DNA of 64,000 nucleotides from Patescibacteria group bacterium (GCA_036726225.1 DAIMCS010000002.1:123743-187742), one strand, 5' to 3'. Positions 234 to 49,615 are shown, counted from the first letter of the stretch. The notes: generated by a model not told the origin, from the sequence alone. Made by a program: numbers and translations.

Positions 234-3200
234 ATGAACAAAATATTACAAGTGTTAAAACCTCAAGTTAGTTTACCAATTGCCCTGGCCATTTTAGTTG
301 GCTTAAGCGGCGTTTTTGTAATGTCGCCAAGGGCCTCCAGAATTGTAAAAGCCGAAAATTGTAACAATGCCCCTTCTGTAGCGACTTTAAACTTTTACCC
401 GGTTACCTGGGGAAACGTTGCGGGTGTTAACTGTTTGGATTTTGCTCCTATATCTATAAGAAACGTAAACAATCCTAATTACGCCCCGAGCGTTTCTGCC
501 CAGCCCGGAGAAGAAATGTATGTAAGTATTTACGTACACAATGGCGCCAGACAAGATGGCGACCCAAACCAAACCACAGCCCAAAATGTAAACGGGAGCA
601 TTTCGCTTTCCGGCAATACCATTTCCACAAGTTTTGCAGGTTCTAATACCAACACCAAAACTGGTGATGTCACTGTAGATATGCCTTCCGGTGCGACTTT
701 GGAAATTATTCCGGGTACAGAGGAATTTTTTGACTATCAATTTAGACCCATTTCCAAAAGTGTCAATTTAACTACTACCGGCGGGAGTTTTAATTTAGGT
801 GATATGCTCGCCTGTTTTGAATATTCCATTCAGCTTCGTTTTAAAGTAAAAGTTGTCGGGGCGGCTGCAGGCACAGGCAATATTGACGCGCAGACAAAAG
901 ACCAAAACTGCCCGGCCGGCAATTACAACGGCATTGTAAGCTGGAATGTTAGCGGCGGCGTTACCCAATCTGCCGTTTATGTCGATGATTTAAATGACAA
1001 CTTAGGCCCGCAATATTTTAGCGGTGAGCTTTGGGCTGAAAACAAAGCAATCTCTTTAATTCCAAACCATACTTTTGTTTTTACTCTCTATTCTGTTCAA
1101 AACGGAGTTGAAACTAAAATCTCTGAGGATTCCACCGGCGTTGTACCTGCGCTTAATTGCGGCGAGGATGCCACCGGAAATATTGATGTAGTCGTGCAGA
1201 GTCAAAACTGCCCGGCCGGCAATTACAACGGCATTGTAAGCTGGAATGTTAGCGGCGGCGTTACCCAATCTGCCGTTTATGTCGATGATTTAAATGACAA
1301 CTTAGGCCCGCAATATTTTAGCGGTGAGCTTTGGGCTGAAAACAAAGCAATCTCTTTAATTCCAAACCATACTTTTGTTTTTACTCTCTATTCTGTTCAA
1401 AACGGAGTTGAAACTAAAATCTCTGAGGATTCCACCGGCGTTGTACCTGCGCTTAATTGCGGCGAAGGCCCCACCACTTTAGTTTGTACGCCCCAAACGC
1501 AGACTGTAAATTCCGGAGCCCAGGCAAGTATTACTGCCAGCGGAGGCACTGCTCCATATTCATGGAAAGAAGGCGGCGTAGTAGTCAGCACACAGCCTAC
1601 CATTACCAGGACTTATACCAACCCTCTAACCTCTACTCAAACCAATACGCTTACTGTTTCAAGCTCAGACGGTCAAACTAAAACTTGTATTATATATGTA
1701 AATGGAGTTAGCGCTCCGCAAAGCGCCAGTATTGTTATAACTAAAGATGTCAGAAATATTACCCAAAACCAGTCTACTTTTGTGGATTCTACATCTGCCA
1801 AACAAAACGATACTTTAGAATACCGCATTGTGGTATCGGCAGGCAGCTCTGTGGCTTTAAACAACGTTGTTGTAACCGACACCTTTGCATCCGGCTTAAC
1901 TTATTTAAGCGGTTCTATTAGGGTAAACGGCCAGCCGCACAGCGCCGGGCTCTCCAGCGGGGGATTAACTTTCTCTTCTGTTAGCCAGGGTTCTCCGTTA
2001 ACTATTACTTACCAGGCCACAGTTAACGCCTCCAGCGGCACTATTGTAAATACCGCTAAGGCCACTGCTTCTAATTCAATCAATTTTCCTAGCGATACTG
2101 CAACTGTAAACGTAACTACGAATCCGGTTTCAGTTAATTGTACTGCTAATCCGACCGTTATTAATATAAACGGTTCAACTACTTTTTCCGCCTCAGGCGG
2201 CAATGGTTCTTATTCTTGGACTGTAACCGGCGGCAGTGTAACCAATTCAACTCAACAAAGCTTTAACTCAACTTTCAACACTGCGGGCACTTTTATAGCC
2301 ACTGTCTCCAGCGGCGGCAATTCCGCCACCTGTAACGTTGTTGTAAACAGCAACCCTAACAATTTAGTTTGTTATGCTAACCCATCTGTAATAAGCTCCG
2401 GTCAAAGCGTGACTTTTACTGCCTCAGGCGGCAGCGGATCTTATACTTGGCATGACAACGGCAACACTTATTTCGGCAGCTCTTACACACCTAACCCAAA
2501 TTACATTAACAACTCTACAGGGTCTATTACCCGCACCGTAACTGTAAACAGCGGCGGCCAAACCGTGCAATGCAGCGTTACTATAAACGGTATTAGCAAC
2601 CCGGGCCAGGCCATTTTGAACATTTCCAAAATGGTCAGGAATACAAACGGCGGCGCTTATCAAAATAGCGTGACCGTAAATACTAATGACACTGTCCAGT
2701 TTGAAATTGTTGTAACCAACAACGGCAGCCAGACAGCAAACAATGTCCGCGTAACTGACAACCTAACTAACGGGTTAAGCTTAGTGCCGGGCAGCGTAAC
2801 TGTTGACGGTTCATACGCTTCTGATTCCACTATCTATTCAGGAATGTATTTAGGCAACTTAGTCCCCGGCCAACAAAAACGAATTAATTTTCAGGCCAGA
2901 ATTAATTCCACCGGTTCTTCCAGCATCCAAAATGTTGCCGTAGCCAACTCCGACAATGCGGGCAGCGTACAAGCCAGCGCCTGGGTTTTTGTAAGCCAGG
3001 TTTCTGGAGGTAATGTAAACTTAAATTACAGCAAGCGCGCTTTCAACGAAACTAGAAATGCCGATGCTACCACTGTTACTGCGCAAAGAGAAGACTTTAT
3101 TACTTATACTTTAACTGTCAACAACAGCGGCAATACACCTGCAAATAATTTCGTCATTACTGACGACCTAAGTCAGGTTTTGCAATATGCTGATATGGTG

Positions 3201-9772: not shown

Positions 9773-10051
9773 ATGATTATCGAAGTTGCGTTATTCGGGT
9801 TCCGCAATGACGTTGATGCTGCAAGGGCCGCTCTTTTGGGGCTGATCCGTGAAAAACAGCCTTACTGGAAGATGGAACACAAAAGGCGGAAAGACGGAAC
9901 TAGCGGCTGGACAGAAGAAAACCCCTGCGTGCACTGGATTATTACTATTACAGAGGACTTGACTGTAGGGGAAGTCTTGAGGCAGATTGACGCTTTAAAT
10001 TTTGGTTTCGTTCTTGGCACCGATTGCCGCGCGTGCCAGAATAAAATCTAG
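9773..10051 (+). CDS. Small hypothetical protein (92 aa), GC-richer than its flanks, strong SD
   Basis: GGGGAGG RBS 6 nt upstream of the ATG. Followed by a GC hairpin plus T-run (10050-10078). Confidence 0.5.
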   Translation: MIIEVALFGFRNDVDAARAALLGLIREKQPYWKMEHKRRKDGTSGWTEENPCVHWIITITEDLTVGEVLRQIDALNFGFVLGTDCRACQNKI

Positions 10052-16141: not shown

Positions 16142-16357
16142 CTAACCGGAAAGCACAGACACCTCTTCTCCTTCCGGAAATACTTCCACGGGCCTGCCTG
16201 TGTTGGAAAAAACCAGTCCGTTGGGGCCGACCGTATAGGCGTAGTTGCCTGGTCCGGTGCTGGCAAGTTTTGCGCCTTCCTGAAGCTCTTCAAATCCGCA
16301 GCCGCTTTGAAAGCCCACCTTACCATCTTTTTCAGTCAATGTAACGAAGCGCGCCAT
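16142..16357 (-). CDS. Small Gly-rich hypothetical protein (71 aa), GC-rich, strong SD
   Basis: AAGGAGG 7 nt upstream of the ATG on the minus strand; flanked by the palindrome and a terminator; no homology recognised. Confidence 0.5.
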   Translation of the reverse strand: MARFVTLTEKDGKVGFQSGCGFEELQEGAKLASTGPGNYAYTVGPNGLVFSNTGRPVEVFPEGEEVSVLSG

Positions 16358-29168: not shown

Positions 29169-29512
29169 TGCTTTAAGCAAACTCGTAAGCCGAATTCTGT
29201 TTCTAAATAATCATCTATCTGGTCACGTTATTGCTAACGTGATCAAGCAACCTACCTAATTTGGTCTTGCACTCAAGTAAGGATTTGGCCGTTTCACCTT
29301 TAATGTTTCCATCAAAGCTAATCTCTTGCGAGATCCTTGGCGTCTTTCGTACCAAGCGTCTCTGTTCGCACCTCTAGGATTACTCCCGACGGGAATTACC
29401 CGCTACCAGTTTTGATAACTCATATGAGGCTATCAAATAAGTGTTCGGACTTTCCTCCCCAACCGGCATCTTGCGATGCCAATTAAAGCGATTATTCGGT
29501 TTGCTTAAAGCC
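29169..29512 (-). ncRNA. rnpB: RNase P RNA, bacterial type A
   Basis: The minus-strand reading contains GGGGAGGAAAGTCCG (P4 / CR-I), AAAGGTGAAACGGCC (GGUGAAA region) and ACAGAATTCGGCTTACGAG (ACAGAAnCCGGCUUA, CR-V). The P1 stem is gctttaagcaaac / gtttgcttaaagc. Length ~344 nt. Confidence 0.85.
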
Positions 29513-31196: not shown

Positions 31197-32270
31197 ATGA
31201 GGATCGCATTAGCACATGATTCCCTTACTCAAATGGGCGGGGCGGAAAGAGTGGTAGATGCATTACACGAACTTTTTCCAAACGCGCCTGTTTTTACATT
31301 GGTCTTTGACCCAAAGTTTAAAGAAAAGTATAAAGATTGGGACATTCAAACTTCACCACTACAGTCGCTGTACTTGGTTTTAGGAAAACTGCAATATTGT
31401 TTGCCGCTAATCCCGTGGGCGGTGGACCAGCTAAACTTTAGCGGCTACGATTTAGTTATTTCCTCCAGCTCGGGTTTTGTAAAAAATATCCGTGTGCCAA
31501 AAAATTGTGTGCATATAAATTATTGTCACACCCCAACCAGATTTTTGTGGAGCGATAACGATTATGTCAAACAGGAAGTAAATTTTTTCCTAAGGCCTTT
31601 TGTAAAAGTTTTTTTATCTAAAATGCGGAAGTGGGATTTAATTGGCGCCAAAAGGGTAACGCATTTTATTGCCAATTCAAAAGAAGTCCAGGATAGAATC
31701 CAAAAATATTATCAGCGTACTAGTACGCTGATATACCCGTTTGTGGATTCAAAATTTTGGAATTCGACAACGCCTAAGGGCGATTACTTCTTACTTGCAG
31801 GCAGGCTACATCCCCATAAAAAAAATGACCTTATTGTGGAAGTTTTTAATGACCTAAATATCCCGCTCCACGTTGTGGGTACAGGGAGGCAAGAGGGTTA
31901 TTTGAAGTCGATTGCTAAGCAAAATATTAGCTTTTTGGGCAGAATAAGCGACGAAGCGCTTAGGGATGAGTATAGCGCTGCTTTAGGGTTTATTTACCCA
32001 CAAATTGAAGATTTTGGCCTTATGCCACTGGAAGCCGCCGGCTGCGGCACAGCCACACTGGCTTACGGTGAGGGCGGCGCTAAAGAGACTGTTCTGCCCG
32101 GGGTAACCGGGGAGCTGTTTGACTCTTACAATGAGGAGAAAATTAAGCAGATGGTTTTGTCTTGGGATGCAAAAAAATATCGAACGGATGACTTAAAAAA
32201 CCAGGCAGAGAAATTTAGTAAAGAAAAATTTAAAAGTGAAATGTTAAATTTTGTAAAATCCCATGTCTGA
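31197..32270 (+). CDS. Family 4 glycosyltransferase; contains the 22-bp palindrome ATCAGCGTACTAGTACGCTGAT at 31720-31741
   Basis: GT-B C-terminal motif LAGRLHPHKKNDL...EDFGLMPLEAAGCGTATLAYGEGGAKETV. Confidence 0.85.
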   Translation: MRIALAHDSLTQMGGAERVVDALHELFPNAPVFTLVFDPKFKEKYKDWDIQTSPLQSLYLVLGKLQYCLPLIPWAVDQLNFSGYDLVISSSSGFVKNIRVPKNCVHINYCHTPTRFLWSDNDYVKQEVNFFLRPFVKVFLSKMRKWDLIGAKRVTHFIANSKEVQDRIQKYYQRTSTLIYPFVDSKFWNSTTPKGDYFLLAGRLHPHKKNDLIVEVFNDLNIPLHVVGTGRQEGYLKSIAKQNISFLGRISDEALRDEYSAALGFIYPQIEDFGLMPLEAAGCGTATLAYGEGGAKETVLPGVTGELFDSYNEEKIKQMVLSWDAKKYRTDDLKNQAEKFSKEKFKSEMLNFVKSHV

Positions 32271-39406: not shown

Positions 39407-39727
39407 ATGAACATAAACATCAAAGCGACAAACACTACATTAACTCCGTCTATTAGGGGCTTTATTGAAGAAAAACTGGAAAGCTTGGCAAAATTTATTA
39501 AAGAAGAAGACAAAATCCGCGTAGAAATAGAAGTGGACAAAAAACGCACTGGTGAGGCTCGTTTTAGGGCGGAAATAGACATTCAACCCCGCGGGCATTA
39601 CGCAGAGGCAAGGGGAGTGGATGAATACGCGGCAATAGATTTAGTTTTGCCAAAAATTAAAGAGCAGCTAACCCGAAAAAAGGACAAGGAAGTCAGCCTA
39701 AGAAGGAGAAGAACAAAGCTTAGGTAA
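39407..39727 (+). CDS. hpf: Ribosome hibernation promoting factor / ribosome-associated inhibitor A
   Basis: [35 protein letters not shown]...VEIEVD...[26 protein letters not shown]. Confidence 0.85.
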
Positions 39728-39743
39728 TAAGGGATAATTTACT

Positions 39744-39772
39744 TGACAAAGCCAGTTTTAGGATATAAAATA
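39744..39772 (+). promoter_or_regulatory. Canonical sigma70-type promoter TTGACA-N17-TAAAAT at the left edge of the GC-rich islet
   Basis: ttacTTGACAaagccagttttaggataTAAAAT. Confidence 0.55.
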
Positions 39773-39785
39773 ATTTTAGTGAAAA

Positions 39786-39935
39786 AAATACTCAAAATTT
39801 CTAATGGGATTGGTTTTTGGTTTTATTTTACTCCGGCAGTTGAGCCCGGAAATTTTGAGTTGATTACCAAGTAGTTTTGTAAAATAATCGACTTTAAATC
39901 TCCGGCCTCAACGAGGCCGGTTTTGTTTTTTGCAG
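39786..39935 (+). ncRNA. Candidate structured leader or small RNA (promoter to intrinsic terminator, ~150 nt) upstream of the strong-SD Cys-rich ORF
   Basis: Long-range complementarity actcaaaatttc / gaaattttgagt. Terminal hairpin ccggcctcaacgaggccgg plus T7 at 39902-39933. The RBS of the next ORF lies 40 nt downstream. Confidence 0.35.
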
Positions 39936-39986
39936 TTTTCCAAATCGCTGTGTGGATGTGAGCAAAACAAGCAAGGAGGATTGATT

Positions 39987-40259
39987 ATGGCTAACCCGTT
40001 CGATTGGCATGGAACAAGCCGCGATATGTGCGGACAAGTTTGTTATATCTTTGAAGTCAAAAACCTGTCGGGACTTCGGAAGAAAAAAAGAAGGCGTAAG
40101 CCCGCGACTTACCTCATTAAAGCCAGGACCGAAATTGGCACGAATATAAAGTTTTACTGTCGGCTTACAGCTGGCCAATGGAAAGTCTGGAGAGTTCCTA
40201 GAGGGATGCCAAACCCAAAACGGCAAGTATCTCGTGTTTCCTTTGGTGACAGCCGTTGA
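39987..40259 (+). CDS. Small basic Cys-containing hypothetical protein (90 aa)
   Basis: AGGAGG 8 nt upstream of the ATG; perfect terminator hairpin agcaggaagcgaatttacattcgcttcctgc at 40268-40298; GC and codon use differ from the surrounding genes. Confidence 0.55.
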   Translation: MANPFDWHGTSRDMCGQVCYIFEVKNLSGLRKKKRRRKPATYLIKARTEIGTNIKFYCRLTAGQWKVWRVPRGMPNPKRQVSRVSFGDSR

Positions 40260-40409
40260 AAGTGCCTAGCAGGAAGCGAATTTACATTCGCTTCCTGCGT
40301 CACAATACTAATTACTTTTTTATGAGAACAATAAACTCAAAATTATATATTTCCATTTGGTGGGTTTTGCAATTCCCGCAAAGCCGTCTTTAAGCGTGTT
40401 TAGTTACAA

Positions 40410-40446
40410 AAACATCCCGACGGCCGTCGGGATGTTTTTGTTTTGG
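40410..40446. terminator. Terminator hairpin, followed by a 15-bp palindrome GATTGTCAAACAATC (40455-40469, -35/operator-like)
   Basis: aaaacatcccgacggccgtcgggatgtttttgtttt. Confidence 0.65.
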
Positions 40447-40506
40447 CTTTTGATTGTCAAACAATCGAGAGCCAGCACAAAAGCTGGAGAAGGCAGGAGG
40501 AATATT

Positions 40507-40878
40507 ATGTCAGAGGAGATCGTCCGTTGGTGTTTTGTTCAGTTGGTATATGAGCGTTTTGTAAGACAGTTAATGGATGCCGAGGAAGAAGAAAGATTTA
40601 CAATCCATCTTTCCAGGTGTGCTTTATGCCGAAATGCCGTGGAGCAGACAGATGAGGAGCTGGCGCAAGCCAAGCTTGAAGCCGGAGAAAAAAAAGTACG
40701 CTTGCTCATTCGGCAAATTGGCAGAACGAAACACAACATGAGGAAAGTTCGCGCAATCAACGGTAAAAGGGTCTTAAAAAACAACGAAGCTAGAGAGCGA
40801 CAGATTAAAATAATGGAAGGACAACTGCTTGAAGCGGAGGCAAATATTTTTGCTTTGAGATGTAAGTATTTGCCATGA
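40507..40878 (+). CDS. Hypothetical coiled-coil protein (123 aa; ORF track start 40357 lies inside a terminator, so the AGGAGG-served ATG at 40507 is used)
   Basis: ggcAGGAGGaatattATG; terminator aagacagg...ccctgtcttatttttt after the stop. Confidence 0.55.
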   Translation: MSEEIVRWCFVQLVYERFVRQLMDAEEEERFTIHLSRCALCRNAVEQTDEELAQAKLEAGEKKVRLLIRQIGRTKHNMRKVRAINGKRVLKNNEARERQIKIMEGQLLEAEANIFALRCKYLP

Positions 40879-40910
40879 TCTCAACTAATAAGACAGGATT
40901 TGTCCCTGTC

Positions 40911-41204
40911 TTATTTTTTGTAATATTTTTTCCAAATAGTATTAAAGCCGCCGTTTTTGTTAAGCAGTTCTTTCACGCCTCTGTTTATGGTTGCCACTCC
41001 TACTTTTAGGCGTTTGGCAATTTCGCGATGGGGGATTTTTGCTTTAAGCATTTTAACTATTTGCCAGCGTACCGCCATTTCAGAATATTCTGCATGCGAA
41101 AGCAGATCGAACAAAAATTCGCGTAAAAGTTTTTTATCCCGCTCTTTTGAAATTTTACCAATAAGCTCCTCCAGCTCTACTCCGTATTCGTGTTTATACT
41201 TCAT
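40911..41204 (-). CDS. TrpR-like YerC/YecD family DNA-binding protein
   Basis: 97 aa, ...EMAVRWQIVKMLKAKIPHREIAKRLKVGVATINRGVKEL... helix-turn-helix typical of YerC/YecD. Confidence 0.65.
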   Translation of the reverse strand: MKYKHEYGVELEELIGKISKERDKKLLREFLFDLLSHAEYSEMAVRWQIVKMLKAKIPHREIAKRLKVGVATINRGVKELLNKNGGFNTIWKKYYKK

Positions 41205-41217
41205 TTTGTATTGCGTG

Positions 41218-41322
41218 TTAGCGTACTAGTACAGTAGCACGCAGCAGGGTTTTATTTCAAGCTGTGGATAAAAATTATTAAAATAAATAAAATTCGATGT
41301 TTCAGCGTACTAGTACGCTATT
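41218..41322. promoter_or_regulatory. Divergent control region with two copies of the palindromic core AGCGTACTAGTAC(GCT)
   Basis: gttAGCGTACTAGTACagtagcacgc (41218-41243) and ttCAGCGTACTAGTACGCTattgac (41303-41327). A perfect 22-bp version lies inside the GT4 gene at 31720-31741. Confidence 0.5.
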
Positions 41323-41394
41323 GACTAAAGGAATTGGTTCAATGTACGCTAAGTGAAGTTCGTGCAAAAAAATACACCAGTAAGGAGGAAGTAA

Positions 41395-41604
41395 GTGACG
41401 CAGGAAGCTGCTCGTTTGGATACTTGCCCTCAAGGAACATCTTTTTGCTATTGGATGGAACAAAAATCCAGGAGCGTTGAAGGCTCGGTGATTGTGTTTT
41501 GTTCCACCTGTGACAAGGCCAGATGCAAAGAATGCTGGAAACCGGCGGTCCAAGTTGAGGGAACTGACAAATACCGGTGTCCGGACTTATGTAAGGCAAG
41601 CTAG
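41395..41604 (+). CDS. Small Cys-rich (8 Cys) hypothetical protein, GTG start
   Basis: AAGGAGG 7 nt upstream; CxxxxxxC...CxxC...CxxC...CxxxC pattern; two terminator hairpins downstream (41618-41640; 41655-41712). Confidence 0.5.
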   Translation: MTQEAARLDTCPQGTSFCYWMEQKSRSVEGSVIVFCSTCDKARCKECWKPAVQVEGTDKYRCPDLCKAS

Positions 41605-41726
41605 CGGCAAAATCGCCCGGGCTGAGAGCAATCTCAGCCTGTCTTTTATTTGAAAATAAAAATAACCGTGAACGGAATGCAAGCAGTTGGCTGCTCTTTT
41701 CCGTTCACGGTTTTTGCTTTTGGGCT

Positions 41727-41953
41727 TTAGGGTTTTGCTTTCCTGATGGGAGCCAGGAGGAACTTTATGTCGGTCTCCTCGCCCTCAATTTTGTAGCGCT
41801 TGGCTTGTTTAGTCCGGAGACTTGTAATGGCCACACCTTTTTTGTAAAACTGTGCCGCCTTGCCGGTCTTTAGGTCGTGCCTTGTAAATTTTGATCCGCC
41901 TTTGATCAAAACCCGTGTGGCTATCGATGAGGTCACTAGCCGTTCAATTACCA
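41727..41953 (-). CDS. Small basic hypothetical protein (75 aa; strong-SD start MVIERL)
   Basis: gaAGGAGGGct ATG on the minus strand; the ORF-track N-terminal extension lacks an RBS. Confidence 0.5.
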
Positions 41954-42088
41954 TAGCCCTCCTTCTTAAGTTTGGGAACACAATGATGCTAACTTTACCA
42001 TAGGTACTTTTAGTTGTAAATAAAAAAACCGCCTTAAGCGGGAAGAACAGGGACGCAAGAGGGGTGCCTCTTGCGTCCCTTACATGGT

Positions 42089-42292
42089 TTAGGCTTCAAC
42101 TAAGCATTCCCAGCGTTTTGGGCCCGAAATTTTGTATATCCAATTGCAATCGGACCATACTGCTGTGAGAAATCGTCCGTCGGCAAGTACTACCGAACCT
42201 TCTGTGTTCTGGGCCCCTTTTAGGGTCTCCTGGGTAACGCCCGCAATTTCCAGGGCTTGGAATCGTTTAATCCAGGTCGAATCGTCGTCCAT
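42089..42292 (-). CDS. Small hypothetical protein (67 aa)
   Basis: ORF with downstream terminator hairpin gggacgcaagaggggtgcctcttgcgtccc (42043-42072); weak RBS. Confidence 0.35.
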   Translation of the reverse strand: MDDDSTWIKRFQALEIAGVTQETLKGAQNTEGSVVLADGRFLTAVWSDCNWIYKISGPKRWECLVEA

Positions 42293-42474
42293 AATTACCT
42301 CGTGGGATTGGGGTTATGTGGTGTTTCGTCGCCTTAGCTATGGCATCCTCCTTCAAAGCGCACTCTACCAAAAATTGCCTTTTTAGGCAAGGTTTTAAGC
42401 TTTTCAGGCAGGGCTTTTTTTGTTATAATCAAACAGTTATCCAGTACTGCCTATAGACTATTTACTACTAATTT

Positions 42475-45198
42475 ATGTCTTTTTTAAGCAATTTATTTAG
42501 CGGACAAAAGAACCCTTTGGACAGGTTTTCCAAAGAGCTTTTGGAAGTTAACAGTTACAGGGAAGAAGTGGAAAAGCTCACACAGGAGCAAATGAGAAAA
42601 GAAGTGACAAGTTACAAGTCACAAGTAACAAGTTTAGAAACTGACAAAGAGATTTTTTTAAAGCTTCAGCAAATTGCTCCCAGGGTTTTTGCCCTAATCC
42701 GCGAAGCCGCAAAAAGGTCCATTGGCCAGTTCCATTACGACGTCCAGCTCGCCGGCGGTTTTGTTTTGTCCAGCGGGAAAATTGCTGAAATGAAAACCGG
42801 AGAAGGAAAAACTCTAACTGCGACTTTGCCGCTCGGGCTTTTTGCGCTTGCAGGCAAAGGCGCGCATTTGGTCACAGTAAACGACTATTTAGCCAGGTGG
42901 CAAGCCTCTCTTATGGGCCCGGTTTTCCATTATCTTGGACTTTCTACTTCATCCATTCAGCACGAAGCCTCGTTTTTGTACGACTCAAGCTACCAGCCAG
43001 AACAGGAAGAAATTACCAAGCTCGAAGGCGAGACCCAGGGTTTGGTAATGGATGTAAAACATATGCGGCCGGTTAAACGCAAAGAAGCCTACGCCGCGGA
43101 TATAACTTACGGCACCAACAACGAATATGGCTTTGACTATTTGCGCGACAATATGGCGCAAAACGTTTCGCAAATAGTTCAGCGCGAATTGTTTTTTGCA
43201 ATTGTCGACGAAGTTGACTCTATTTTAATAGATGAAGCGCGTACCCCTCTTATCATTAGCATGCCGGACGCAGAGCCAACCAGCAAGTATTACGATTTTG
43301 CCAAATTAGTTGAGCGGTTAGACGAAAGCACAGACTATATAGTTGACGAAAAGCACAAATCAGCATCGCTGACCGATGCGGGCATTAATAAAATTGAAAG
43401 CATTTTAAAAGTGCCGAACATTTACGACACTTCCAAAGGCGTTACTACCATCCACCATATTGAACAGGCTTTAAGGGCCAGGACTTTGTTTAAAAAAGAC
43501 AGGGACTATGTGGTGCGTGAAGGCGAAATTATTATTGTAGACGAATTTACCGGGCGTTTAATGTTTGGCCGCAGGTATTCAGAAGGACTGCACCAGGCAA
43601 TTGAGGCAAAAGAAAACGTAAAAATCCAGCAGGAAAGCAAAACCCTTGCCACCATAACCTTCCAAAATTTATTTAGGCTTTACAAAAAACTTTCGGGTAT
43701 GACCGGAACGGCCAAAACCGAGGAAGAGGAGTTCTTTAAAATTTATCAGCTTACAGTTGAGCAAATCCCAACCCATAGGCCAATGGTAAGGGCAGACGGC
43801 GCGGATATGATTTATAAAACTGAGGAAGCCAAGTTTAAAGCTATTGCAAAAGAAGTAAAAGAACGCCACAAAAAAGGCCAGCCGGTTTTAATTGGTACGG
43901 TAAGCATTGCCAAAAACGAAATGCTGGCAGAAGTTTTAAAGAGCGAAGGGCTGACTTTTGAAATTTTAAACGCTAAAAACCACGAACGTGAGGCGCATAT
44001 TATTTCCCAGGCCGGCCGCTTGGGGCAAATTACTTTGGCCACTAACATTGCCGGTCGCGGTGTGGACATTTTGCTCGGCGGCAACCCCATAGACCAGCAG
44101 GAGGCCAAAGCTGTGCGAGATGCGGGTGGTCTGCACATTTTGGGCACGGAGCGCCACGAATCGCGCCGTATAGACAACCAGCTTCGCGGGCGCGCCGGCC
44201 GTCAGGGTGACCCGGGGTCTTCGCAGTTTTTTGTTTCTATGGAAGATGACCTTATGCGCCTTTTTGGCGGCGAGCGGATGAAGTCCTTAATGACCACTTT
44301 GGGCCTGCCGGACGACCAGCCAATTGAAGCAAAATTGGTTTCGCGGTCTATTGAGTCTGCGCAAAAGAAAATTGAAGGCTTAAACTTTGACACCAGAAAA
44401 CACGTGCTTGAATTTGACGACGTATTAAACCACCAGCGCAACGTAATTTACAAAAGGCGCCGCGCGTTTTTGGCAGACACAGAAGAAAGCAAACAGGGGG
44501 ATTTGAAAAAAGAAATTTTGGAAATGGTGGAAAAGGAAATTGGGGAGCTGGTGACAACTAATTTAAATGCGTTAGACGAACTTGGCAATAAAAAAGAGGA
44601 CTGGGATAATTTGTTTAAAACTGCAAACAGCATAATTCCTGTTGATCAGAATCTTATTGCTAAAATAAAAGAAGAAGCAAAAAATGCGGCAGACAGGGAA
44701 TTTGCAGTTGCCGATGTGCTATATAAAGCAGCGGCTGATTTTTGGGAAAAGAAAGAGCAGGAAATGGGCAGGGAGGTTTTTGAAGGCGCGCAACGGTTTG
44801 TGGCTTTGCAGTCTTTAGACAACCTTTGGATGGAGCATTTGGACACTATGGACCATTTGCGCGACTCGGTAAGGCTCCGCGGCTATGGCCAAAGGGATCC
44901 GCTTGTTGAGTACAAAAAAGAAGGGCATTTAATGTTCCAGCGTTTGACCGCAGAAATAAACAAGCAAATTGTCTTTACTATTTTCCACATAAGTGTCCAA
45001 GCCAAGCCACAGCAACAGGTCCAGCCAATGAATTTGAATTTATCGAGTCAATCAGCGAATCAGTCAATCAGCGAATCAGCTGATAAAAGTGTGGGCAGAA
45101 ACGAGCCTTGCCCCTGCGGCAGCGGGAAGAAATGGAAAAAATGCGGGATGATAAATTCCCAAGAACATCAAACGAATATATCTAAAACTAATCACTAA
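42475..45198 (+). CDS. secA: Preprotein translocase ATPase SecA
   Basis: DVQLAGGFVL, MKTGEGKTLTATLP (Walker A), DEVDSILIDEARTPLIIS; C-terminal zinc motif CPCGSGKKWKKCG. Confidence 0.95.
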   Translation: MSFLSNLFSGQKNPLDRFSKELLEVNSYREEVEKLTQEQMRKEVTSYKSQVTSLETDKEIFLKLQQIAPRVFALIREAAKRSIGQFHYDVQLAGGFVLSSGKIAEMKTGEGKTLTATLPLGLFALAGKGAHLVTVNDYLARWQASLMGPVFHYLGLSTSSIQHEASFLYDSSYQPEQEEITKLEGETQGLVMDVKHMRPVKRKEAYAADITYGTNNEYGFDYLRDNMAQNVSQIVQRELFFAIVDEVDSILIDEARTPLIISMPDAEPTSKYYDFAKLVERLDESTDYIVDEKHKSASLTDAGINKIESILKVPNIYDTSKGVTTIHHIEQALRARTLFKKDRDYVVREGEIIIVDEFTGRLMFGRRYSEGLHQAIEAKENVKIQQESKTLATITFQNLFRLYKKLSGMTGTAKTEEEEFFKIYQLTVEQIPTHRPMVRADGADMIYKTEEAKFKAIAKEVKERHKKGQPVLIGTVSIAKNEMLAEVLKSEGLTFEILNAKNHEREAHIISQAGRLGQITLATNIAGRGVDILLGGNPIDQQEAKAVRDAGGLHILGTERHESRRIDNQLRGRAGRQGDPGSSQFFVSMEDDLMRLFGGERMKSLMTTLGLPDDQPIEAKLVSRSIESAQKKIEGLNFDTRKHVLEFDDVLNHQRNVIYKRRRAFLADTEESKQGDLKKEILEMVEKEIGELVTTNLNALDELGNKKEDWDNLFKTANSIIPVDQNLIAKIKEEAKNAADREFAVADVLYKAAADFWEKKEQEMGREVFEGAQRFVALQSLDNLWMEHLDTMDHLRDSVRLRGYGQRDPLVEYKKEGHLMFQRLTAEINKQIVFTIFHISVQAKPQQQVQPMNLNLSSQSANQSISESADKSVGRNEPCPCGSGKKWKKCGMINSQEHQTNISKTNH

Positions 45199-49459: not shown

Positions 49460-49615
49460 ATGCTAACAGATCCTGTTTGCGGTATGGGAGTCAGTGATGA
49501 AACAATGTTTAATTCGGTCCACGAAGGCTCGACGTACTTTTTTTGCTCTCAAGACTGTATGGATGAGTTTGAGCAAAACCCGGAGGAATATGAAACTGAA
49601 TCTGGCCACAAATGA
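49460..49615 (+). CDS. Unannotated 51-aa YHS/TRASH-type metal-binding domain protein (below ORF-track cut-off)
   Basis: Translation MLTDPVCGMGVSDETMFNSVHEGSTYFFCSQDCMDEFEQNPEEYETESGHK shows the DPVCGM...Y.FCS..C...F YHS signature. GGGAGGGCGG SD upstream and a terminator (49627-49667) downstream. Confidence 0.7.
   Translation: MLTDPVCGMGVSDETMFNSVHEGSTYFFCSQDCMDEFEQNPEEYETESGHK

Follow-up and report, generated by a model that had tools for sequence, protein, structure and literature searches.

The trp operon of Escherichia coli combines a TrpR-family repressor, a palindromic operator over the promoter, and a leader open reading frame (ORF) with tandem Trp codons, behind which lie a hairpin, an antiterminator and an intrinsic terminator. 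The same kinds of element, the antiterminators as candidate pairings, were found between hpf and secA in a 64,000-nucleotide (nt) stretch of DNA from a Patescibacteria group bacterium (GCA_036726225.1, DAIMCS010000002.1:123743-187742), which is referred to here as the window and numbered from its first letter. This hpf-secA stretch of a Doudnabacteria-like lineage is probably a tryptophan/aromatic-amino-acid sensing locus, made up of a TrpR-type repressor and two leader-peptide attenuators. Compared with the E. coli trp operon, the leader ORFs are predicted to be leaderless or nearly so, a second attenuator carries mixed Phe/Trp/Tyr codons, the operator is built on one GTACTAGTAC core where E. 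coli has two ACTAGT units, and the genes under control (hereafter the cargo) encode small orphan proteins, biosynthetic genes being absent from the locus.

In the host-dependent Chlamydia trachomatis, the trpRBA operon holds only tryptophan-synthase salvage genes under TrpR and intergenic leader control (PMC7755916), and this layout is matched by two relatives of the window locus, L090 with trpBA and L094 with a TrpB-like gene (related loci are denoted by such L numbers). However, the extra control in Chlamydia is attributed to the iron repressor YtgR, while here it would lie in a textbook terminator/antiterminator with a leader peptide, and the window locus is without trpBA. The leaderless polycysteine short ORFs of mycobacteria, which are Cys-responsive attenuators (10.1101/834739), are alike in being short, placed at the operon 5′ end, rich in the codons of one amino acid and, in the reading proposed here, responsive to its supply, but they concern another amino acid and another phylum, whereas a canonical intrinsic terminator and candidate antiterminator are visible here. 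Bacillus subtilis anti-TRAP is a small zinc-binding regulator, not an enzyme, that is induced via a T-box when charged tRNA-Trp is scarce (PMC10327191, PMC4027176). It is a precedent for placing cargo like the zinc-ribbon-like protein O4, described below, under Trp control, by analogy of logic only, as no sequence relation of the O4 family to anti-TRAP was found in a profile search against solved structures. We know of no TRAP in this lineage. HisR/YerC (PMC9413887) shares with the repressor described here the family PF01371, the small size and a palindromic operator, but the context here is Trp/aromatic leaders and trpB, not his genes. A full-text literature search returned no paper uniting leader peptide, attenuation and Patescibacteria. 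The parts are thus already known from textbook cases (TrpR with trpL, the Chlamydia trpRBA layout, and leaderless amino-acid-sensing ORFs), while the new features are the Patescibacteria setting, the pairing of leaderless leader ORFs with canonical terminators, the mixed aromatic leader and, above all, a variable orphan small-protein cargo without biosynthetic genes.

The TrpR gene, the operator-promoter and both leaders were found in the same hpf-secA gap in 11 related loci, at 52–74% identity of TrpR and 77–80% identity of SecA. The elements of the first leader in the window, which precedes the cargo ORF O1, are as follows (SD, Shine-Dalgarno sequence; aa, amino acids).

39743-39771, plus strand: leader 1 promoter, TTGACA, 17 nt, TAAAAT, an 11/12 match in the promoter scan
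39779-39874, plus strand: leader peptide 1 ORF, 31 codons with a GTG start, encoding VKKILKISNGIGFWFYFTPAVEPGNFELITK before the stop, with the run F-W-F-Y-F at 39815-39829
39836-39917, plus strand: leader 1 antiterminator, in which 39836-39866 pairs with 39885-39917, including the terminator 5′ arm
39902-39931, plus strand: leader 1 intrinsic terminator, CCGGCCTC AAC GAGGCCGG and a T-run, with the hairpin at 39902-39920
39987-40259, plus strand: O1, 90 aa, basic, with 3 Trp, behind the SD AAGGAGG at 39973-39979

The leader 1 ORF starts 7 nt past the -10 box, with the same geometry in L090 and L094, and its transcript is accordingly placed by the promoter match as predicted near-leaderless. The aromatic run stays in frame in six loci including the window, as FWFYF in L007 and L094, FWYYF in L090, FFFYF in L091 and FWFFFYF in L096. 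A single-base difference in L090 puts the sequence behind the run into another frame, indicating that the run is conserved as codons and the remainder as RNA. A metagenome scan with the leader 1 pattern matched two contigs, both of them informative. The capacity of leader 1 for alternative pairing was evident from constrained folding. When the aromatic run was masked, the antiterminator formed in the window, L090 and L094 (-29.7, -28.3 and -31.7 kcal/mol, respectively), while with a ribosome at the leader 1 stop the terminator alone formed. Further, the 22 antiterminator pairs were 92.7% paired over five sequences, compared with at most 52% when the partner was slid.

The second leader lies between O1 and the cargo ORF O2, and comprises the following elements.

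40322-40393, plus strand: leader peptide 2 ORF, 23 codons, encoding MRTINSKLYISIWWVLQFPQSRL before the stop, with tandem Trp codons at 40358-40363
40363-40385, plus strand: hairpin P1 (segments 1:2), whose first base is the last one of the second Trp codon
about 40379-40405, plus strand: leader 2 antiterminator strand
40406-40449, plus strand: leader 2 terminator, a perfect 36-nt palindrome (40406-40441) and a T-run
40472-40487, plus strand: small hairpin CCAGCACAAAAGCTGG, just 5′ of the O2 SD
40507-40878, plus strand: O2, 123 aa, with HxxxCxxC and then a helical hairpin, behind the SD AGGAGG at 40495-40500

A leader ORF with tandem Trp codons (WW) was present in 10 loci (the window, L010, L090, L092–L096, L098 and L099), with WQ in L091, and the spacing ahead of the first Trp is exactly 12 codons in 7 of these 10 as well as in the WQ locus. 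Each homologue has its own ATG and stop, and the peptide is otherwise unconserved. In nine loci (L010, L091–L096, L098 and L099), the ATG lies 6–9 nt past the -10 of the operator-bearing promoter, a spacing that predicts leaderless or near-leaderless translation. Hairpin P1 was 95% paired in eight sequences, two of its pairs showing compensatory double changes, and the strand after P1 mimics the terminator 3′ arm at every locus, though the terminators differ. Consistently, the summed duplex energy of segment 3 with the locus's own segment 2 was -66.4 kcal/mol, compared with a mean of -45.9 (standard deviation 3.6) for mismatched combinations, and 0 of 1854 derangements were as good, although the leader sequences compared are related and such shuffle statistics overstate their independence. 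The leader 2 stop (40391) lies 13 nt before the terminator arm. An intrinsic terminator stands between leader ORF and regulated gene in all homologues of both leaders, and window-wide, only leaders 1 and 2 unite an aromatic or WW codon run, an intergenic position and a terminator. An earlier note, made from the window's sequence, had recorded a promoter and a structured RNA ahead of the 90-aa protein; structured units are present, but their nature was missed, as both leaders have the make-up of leader-peptide attenuators with aromatic/Trp codons.

Two side observations concern leader 2. An element CCAGCACAAA...GCTGG between its terminator and the cargo SD was also found in L091, L092, L093 and L094. 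In addition, JGI gene calls merge leader 2 and its terminator with O2 (40357-40878) into a 172–173-aa protein starting from TTG, in which the T-rich terminator appears as a false hydrophobic segment; the same was seen in L010.

Could the leaders instead be stand-alone small RNAs, or 3′-untranslated-region (3′-UTR) and terminator structures of hpf and O1, whose aromatic and WW ORFs are untranslated by-products of U/G-rich RNA? Both leaders fold well (z-scores of -3.0 and -5.2) and end in strong terminators, leader 1 of L007, which shows no obvious promoter, might represent the 3′ UTR of hpf, and trans-acting terminated attenuator RNAs are known from rhizobia (10.1101/606483). Against this explanation stand an in-frame start and stop in every copy, a start at the noted 6–9 nt past the -10 box in nearly all copies, a 12-codon distance to WW that is fixed in most loci while the intervening sequence has diverged, and a leader 1 aromatic run that stays in frame where the downstream frame shifts. 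We therefore regard this explanation as quite unlikely and retain that of translated leader peptides.

The repressor gene and the operators lie downstream of O2, next to the cargo ORF O4, and a further operator copy lies outside the hpf-secA gap.

40911-41204, minus strand: O3, 97 aa, TrpR-family repressor, without an SD
41219-41236: operator 1 (core GTACTAGTAC, 41223-41232), which overlaps the O3 promoter at its -10 box
41302-41350, plus strand: operator 2 with the O4 promoter, TCAGCGTACTAGTACGCT, core at 41307-41316, abutting the -35 TTGACT at 41321-41326, with the -10 TACGCT at 41345-41350
41395-41604, plus strand: O4, 69 aa with 8 Cys, FCxxC...CxxC zinc-ribbon-like, behind the SD AAGGAGG from 41382
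31711-31732: third operator copy, a perfect 22-bp palindrome ATCAGCGTACTAGTACGCTGAT inside the GT4 glycosyltransferase gene at 31197-32270

O3 matched PF01371 (Trp_repressor) with 64.9 bits (cut-off 27, E = 6.9e-18). It scored better with the TrpR equivalog model of NCBIfam, TIGR01321 (39.7 bits, cut-off 67.25, E = 4.8e-10), than with the YerC/YecD model TIGR02531 (27 bits, cut-off 42.2), both being under their equivalog cut-offs, so on these profile scores O3 is placed as a member of PF01371 and not as an assured TrpR orthologue. In TrpR, R54, R69, A80, T81, R84 and G85 are helix-turn-helix DNA-contact and ligand-sandwich residues. All six are retained in O3 as R46, R60, A71, T72, R75 and G76 in the HMMER alignment with E. 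coli TrpR (1trr/1tro), while I79, T83 and S88 of the E. coli protein are replaced by V, N and E, respectively. O3 homologues numbered 43 proteins at 52–74% identity, and the gene was in the hpf-secA gap in nine of the nine contexts read (L010 and L092–L099).

The operator core GTACTAGTAC occurred 18 times in the window, L007–L086 and L090–L095, restricted to repressor-encoding sources, and 0 times in the other ~1.3 Mb fetched; 11 more copies were found in four further TrpR loci (L096–L099). Also, the junction of operator and TTGACA recurs in L010 and L091–L099. Of the motifs given in PMC9413887, the operator is similar to that of E. coli TrpR and not to that of HisR, cacTTTA-N6-TAAAgtg. The earlier note had named a YerC/TrpR-like regulator with paired palindromic operators, of Firmicute-like flavour. 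The family and the palindromes stand, while the YerC/YecD (HisR) subfamily was rejected on its sub-threshold score, the different operator type and the absence of his genes, and the Firmicute flavour is likewise unsupported. As operator 1 overlies the -10 box of the O3 promoter, O3 is expected to be autoregulated, and Trp is probably its corepressor. In the window, the operators of the gap stand only at O3 and O4, which does not fit the proposal in that note of a self-contained cassette under one regulator.

Operator-like sites were seen at other points too. The core of the intragenic palindrome at 31711-31732 is the TrpR-type operator core, and this copy matches operator 2 exactly over 17 nt, far above chance expectation; it may be an intragenic roadblock or an extra member of the regulon. 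A second operator context, GTACTAGTAC(A/G)CTAGTGCAAAAGG, was observed in L096, L099 and L095, where it lies behind leader terminators and ahead of cargo or of leader 1; this suggests TrpR sites at several points of the locus.

The link to tryptophan genes is provided by the relatives. In L090, the gene order is murB-hpf-leader 1-93-aa ORF-leader 2-70-aa ORF-trpB-trpA. In L094, TrpR, the operator-promoter and the WW leader are followed by a 135-aa ORF and a 435-aa PALP (TrpB-like) gene, and further on by leader 1 and a 64-aa CxxC ORF. Operator and Trp-codon leader share one promoter in L010, L091–L096 and L098–L099, that is, in all but L097. In the window, a perfect 14-nt inverted repeat has one half at 40290-40303, as the 3′ arm of the hairpin behind O1 (GCTTCCTGCGTCAC), and the other at 41395-41408, where O4 begins with its GTG start; it may mark RNA-RNA pairing, or be the scar of a rearrangement that parted leader 2 from the operator promoter.

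From these elements the following mechanism is proposed. O3 would bind the GTACTAGTAC palindromes and, with Trp as corepressor, repress its own promoter and that of O4. Transcription from the promoter at 39743 would start nearly at the leader 1 start codon. When charged Phe/Trp/Tyr-tRNA is scarce, the ribosome would stall on F-W-F-Y-F, the downstream strand would pair with the terminator 5′ arm to give the antiterminator, and RNA polymerase would enter O1; at ample supply, the ribosome would reach the leader 1 stop and cover the antiterminator strand, and the terminator at 39902-39920 would form. Leader 2 would follow the same logic ahead of O2, its tandem Trp codons reading Trp-tRNA. Since O1 and leader 2 each lack a promoter, the promoter at 39743, leader 1, O1, leader 2 and O2 probably form one transcript with the attenuators in series. 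O1, O2 and the zinc-ribbon O4 would act in aromatic-amino-acid shortage, for instance as small regulators like Bacillus anti-TRAP, and in relatives the same switches would also drive trpB-trpA or a TrpB-like gene.

Several points weigh against this mechanism, besides the relatedness of the leader sequences compared. For leader 1, the stalled minimum-energy fold retains the terminator in L007 and L091, the antiterminator pairs are mostly invariant with one double change, that is, conserved more than covarying, and the window ORF opens with GTG, which serves poorly as a leaderless start codon in model bacteria. For leader 2, the antiterminator is weak (-6 to -12 kcal/mol), and the very strong terminator persists in the minimum-energy fold of three of four loci when the stall site is masked, so that the switch would have to be kinetic. 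A tblastn search of the 64-kb window with L090 TrpB and TrpA (E ≤ 1) found neither gene nor remnant, the codon scores of O1 and O4 are at the level of non-coding control ORFs, and all genome copies are identical, leaving purifying selection without a readout. Finally, the regulatory steps, including Trp responsiveness, the transcript structure and the cargo function, are all what we infer from sequence.

The remaining features of the block and its flanks are the following.

39407-39727: hpf, PF02482
40887-40915: bidirectional terminator, common to the convergent O2 and O3
41618-41715: two terminator hairpins between the convergent O4 and O5
41727-41954, minus strand: O5, 75 aa, basic, behind the SD AAGGAGG at 41958-41964, with a promoter-like site at 42020-41992
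42029-42080, minus strand: tandem terminator hairpins of O6
42089-42292, minus strand: O6, 67 aa with 4 Trp, behind the SD GAGG
42475-45198: secA, the downstream flank of the small-gene block

The earlier note had also raised a chimeric contig or a horizontal acquisition. The first is refuted, as the hpf-to-secA arrangement is identical, at 99.9–100% identity, in at least 24 contigs of independent JGI, ENA and Logan assemblies, with no variant within the islet among them. Three Logan contigs stop at 40412, inside the perfect 36-nt palindrome (40406-40441); these ends are a de Bruijn-graph artefact of the palindrome and not a strain junction. The nearest species representatives have 77–80% SecA identity, one of them being named Candidatus Doudnabacteria.

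The composition of the block is ordinary. GC of 39740-42300 is 0.428, compared with a window mean of 0.420 (standard deviation 0.018), which is the 66th percentile, and the block-wide rise in GC that had been reported was not borne out. The spacers are GC-poor (0.35–0.46), and only the cargo ORFs are GC-richer (0.43–0.50 vs. 0.417, Mann-Whitney p = 1e-5). With a codon model trained on host genes, O1 and O4 scored ~6 standard deviations low, O2 3.7 low, and O5 and O6 ~2 low, while O3 was host-like; the shift in codon usage claimed earlier thus holds for O1, O4 and O2, and fails for O3.

Strong SDs set the cargo apart from host genes. The computed duplexes of O1, O2, O4, O5 and O6 with the anti-SD had energies of -7.2 to -12.7 kcal/mol at workable spacing, whereas 46 long host genes had a mean of -1.55, with values of -7 or below in four of them; strong SDs were therefore found in five of five cargo ORFs vs. 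4 of 46 host genes, in agreement with the contrast noted before. Four of the nine AAGGAGG sites of the window lie inside the 2.6-kb block. That every small ORF has a strong SD is true of O1, O2, O4 and O5 (AAGGAGG or AGGAGG), and of O6 with GAGG, but not of O3, which has none. Likewise, the units are bracketed by strong hairpin and T-run terminators, yet not each of them has its own, as the 3′ hairpin of O1 is without a T-run. What emerges is a regulator-associated cluster of small, SD-led and separately terminated genes, as had been proposed, in which O5 and O6 would stand apart, each as an SD-led unit without a visible connection to the sensors.

Similar genes stand alone elsewhere in the window. 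Small ORFs with GGAGG-class SDs and their own terminators were found at 9773-10051 (plus strand, 92 aa), 16142-16357 (minus strand, 71 aa) and 49460-49615 (plus strand, a 51-aa YHS-domain protein), the first two being genuine members of the micro-islets that the earlier note had placed there. These ORFs are also GC-richer, and the host genome is otherwise nearly without SD sites. The 71-aa ORF is absent from a plain ORF list, where a longer frame overlaps it. As SD-led small ORFs occur singly elsewhere in the window, a strong SD is a trait of the small stand-alone genes of this genome and not a foreign mark.

The evidence on a horizontally acquired islet, or a mobile-element remnant dropped between hpf and secA, can now be weighed. 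The hpf-secA gap of relatives ranges from ~140 bp (L009 and L011) to 5.2 kb (L094), the cargo ORFs differ in nearly every genome and are GC-richer than host genes and SD-led, the codon usage of O1, O2 and O4 is atypical, and O1 and O2 are near-orphans, all of which would suit an insertion. Against it stand the ordinary composition of the whole block, the host-like codons of O3, the same SD-led and GC-richer style in single small ORFs elsewhere in the window, and the synteny, since the clade has inherited the regulator, the operators and both leaders at this very position, which refutes a foreign origin for this backbone. Also, scans of the block gave no tRNA and no integrase, transposase or phage family, no flanking direct repeats were found at the islet, and scans of viral contigs gave no relatives of O4 and O5. 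With the block ordinary in composition and its backbone in place in the 11 related loci, foreign origin is unsupported, and an acquired islet is judged unlikely; the sensing locus is taken as resident in the clade.

The gap of relatives may also hold ordinary genes. In L094 (reverse complement, ~1330-3050), the 135-aa ORF has a DGHHR motif (ParB/Srx-like by eye) and stands with the TrpB-like PALP gene, and at 7929-9671 of L012 an S-adenosylmethionine decarboxylase-like and a deoxyhypusine synthase-like ORF were recognized, both by eye.

By the searches made, the cargo appears nearly orphan and varies between genomes. Scans of the six ORFs with Pfam, PHROGs and NCBIfam matched O3 alone, and sequence and profile searches of the PDB with O1, O2, O5 and the O4 family gave no match. 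A phmmer search with O1 over 1.84 billion representatives retrieved only O1 itself, with weak matches to Ig-repeat motifs, and its by-eye likeness to the 93-aa ORF of L090 was not backed by BLASTP. A word-indexed search with O2 also retrieved only itself, and its sole relative is p71 of L092, a 71-aa ORF at the same position (E = 3e-5). The HxxxCxxC of O2 consists of H34, C38 and C41. A zf-HC2 anti-sigma factor was rejected for O2 on a score of 13.5 bits against a cut-off of 22.2, with no sigma gene nearby and low AF2 confidence in the N-terminal part. Helices 50–121 of the AF2 model are confident and form a generic helical hairpin (Foldseek E > 1). The O4 core FCxxC...CxxC is common to ORFs behind leader 1 in L007 and L094 (BLASTP E = 8e-4, and alignment), which suggests that O4 belongs to a small zinc-ribbon family and is probably zinc-binding, in keeping with the Cys-rich, metal-binding type of small protein suspected in the earlier note. 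For O5 and O6, no relatives were found, and neither operators nor leaders lie nearby. A KH domain for O5 was discarded, the only match being 1dtj at E = 1.2 and the AF2 model (pLDDT 48) too poor for a fold search.

Another possibility is that the cargo, in whole or in part and most of all in O1 and O4, consists of non-functional frames, kept by chance or by constraint on the RNA. In its favour, O1 and O4 score in the codon model just as non-coding control ORFs do, the searches yielded neither homologues nor domains, and the AF2 confidence of O5 is low. However, every one of these ORFs has a near-perfect SD suitably spaced before its start and a terminator close behind its end, and frames of 67–123 codons behind each of five SD sites would be very improbable by chance. 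Further, the O4 core is also in the L007 and L094 ORFs, and a segment of O2 is also in the L092 ORF at the same position. Non-functional frames are therefore considered very unlikely, and the cargo ORFs are read as genes, although confidence in any assignment of their function is low.

Some further sequences were observed in and around the block. On the minus strand upstream of O6, a perfect AAGGAGG runs straight into a two-codon mini-ORF, ATG-CCA-TAG (42339-42353); a hairpin and T-run precede it, and the start of O6 is 54 nt further on. Antisense to O5, at 41751-41771 on the plus strand, the ribosome-binding region of O2 recurs as an 86% copy (AGCCAGGAGGAACTTTATGTC vs. AGGCAGGAGGAATATTATGTC), which opens a 9-codon frame only. 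An Rfam scan of the islet gave no match at gathering score. In the whole window, the sole Rfam family at gathering score was the bacterial RNase P RNA class A, at 29170-29507 on the minus strand (122 bits). The trpB-motif, a riboswitch candidate of Firmicutes/Fusobacteria (PMC11109978), scored 33 vs. 59 bits at 41620-41722 and was dismissed as chance, the site being the two terminators between O4 and O5.

A wider reading, which we hold only tentatively and think rather less probable than its negation, is that classical Trp sensors have been retained but uncoupled from biosynthesis in host-dependent Patescibacteria, which produce few amino acids or none. The locus would then be a supply gauge beside a ribosome hibernation gene, switching on a quickly changing set of SD-dependent small proteins (such as the O4 zinc-ribbon and O2 coiled-coil families) that would serve as starvation effectors or anti-regulators, with the strong SD giving them privileged translation.

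The finding offers a concrete candidate sensor for how ultra-small auxotrophic Patescibacteria may read the supply from the host or the surroundings, in which a repressor and two attenuators would read charged aromatic tRNA. It would place textbook ribosome-mediated attenuation in this radiation, and it delimits a group of small orphan proteins that should, by their expression, serve as reporters of aromatic-amino-acid shortage. In annotation, the locus would account for the conserved "structured RNAs" and the over-called ORFs of 172–173 aa in these genomes.

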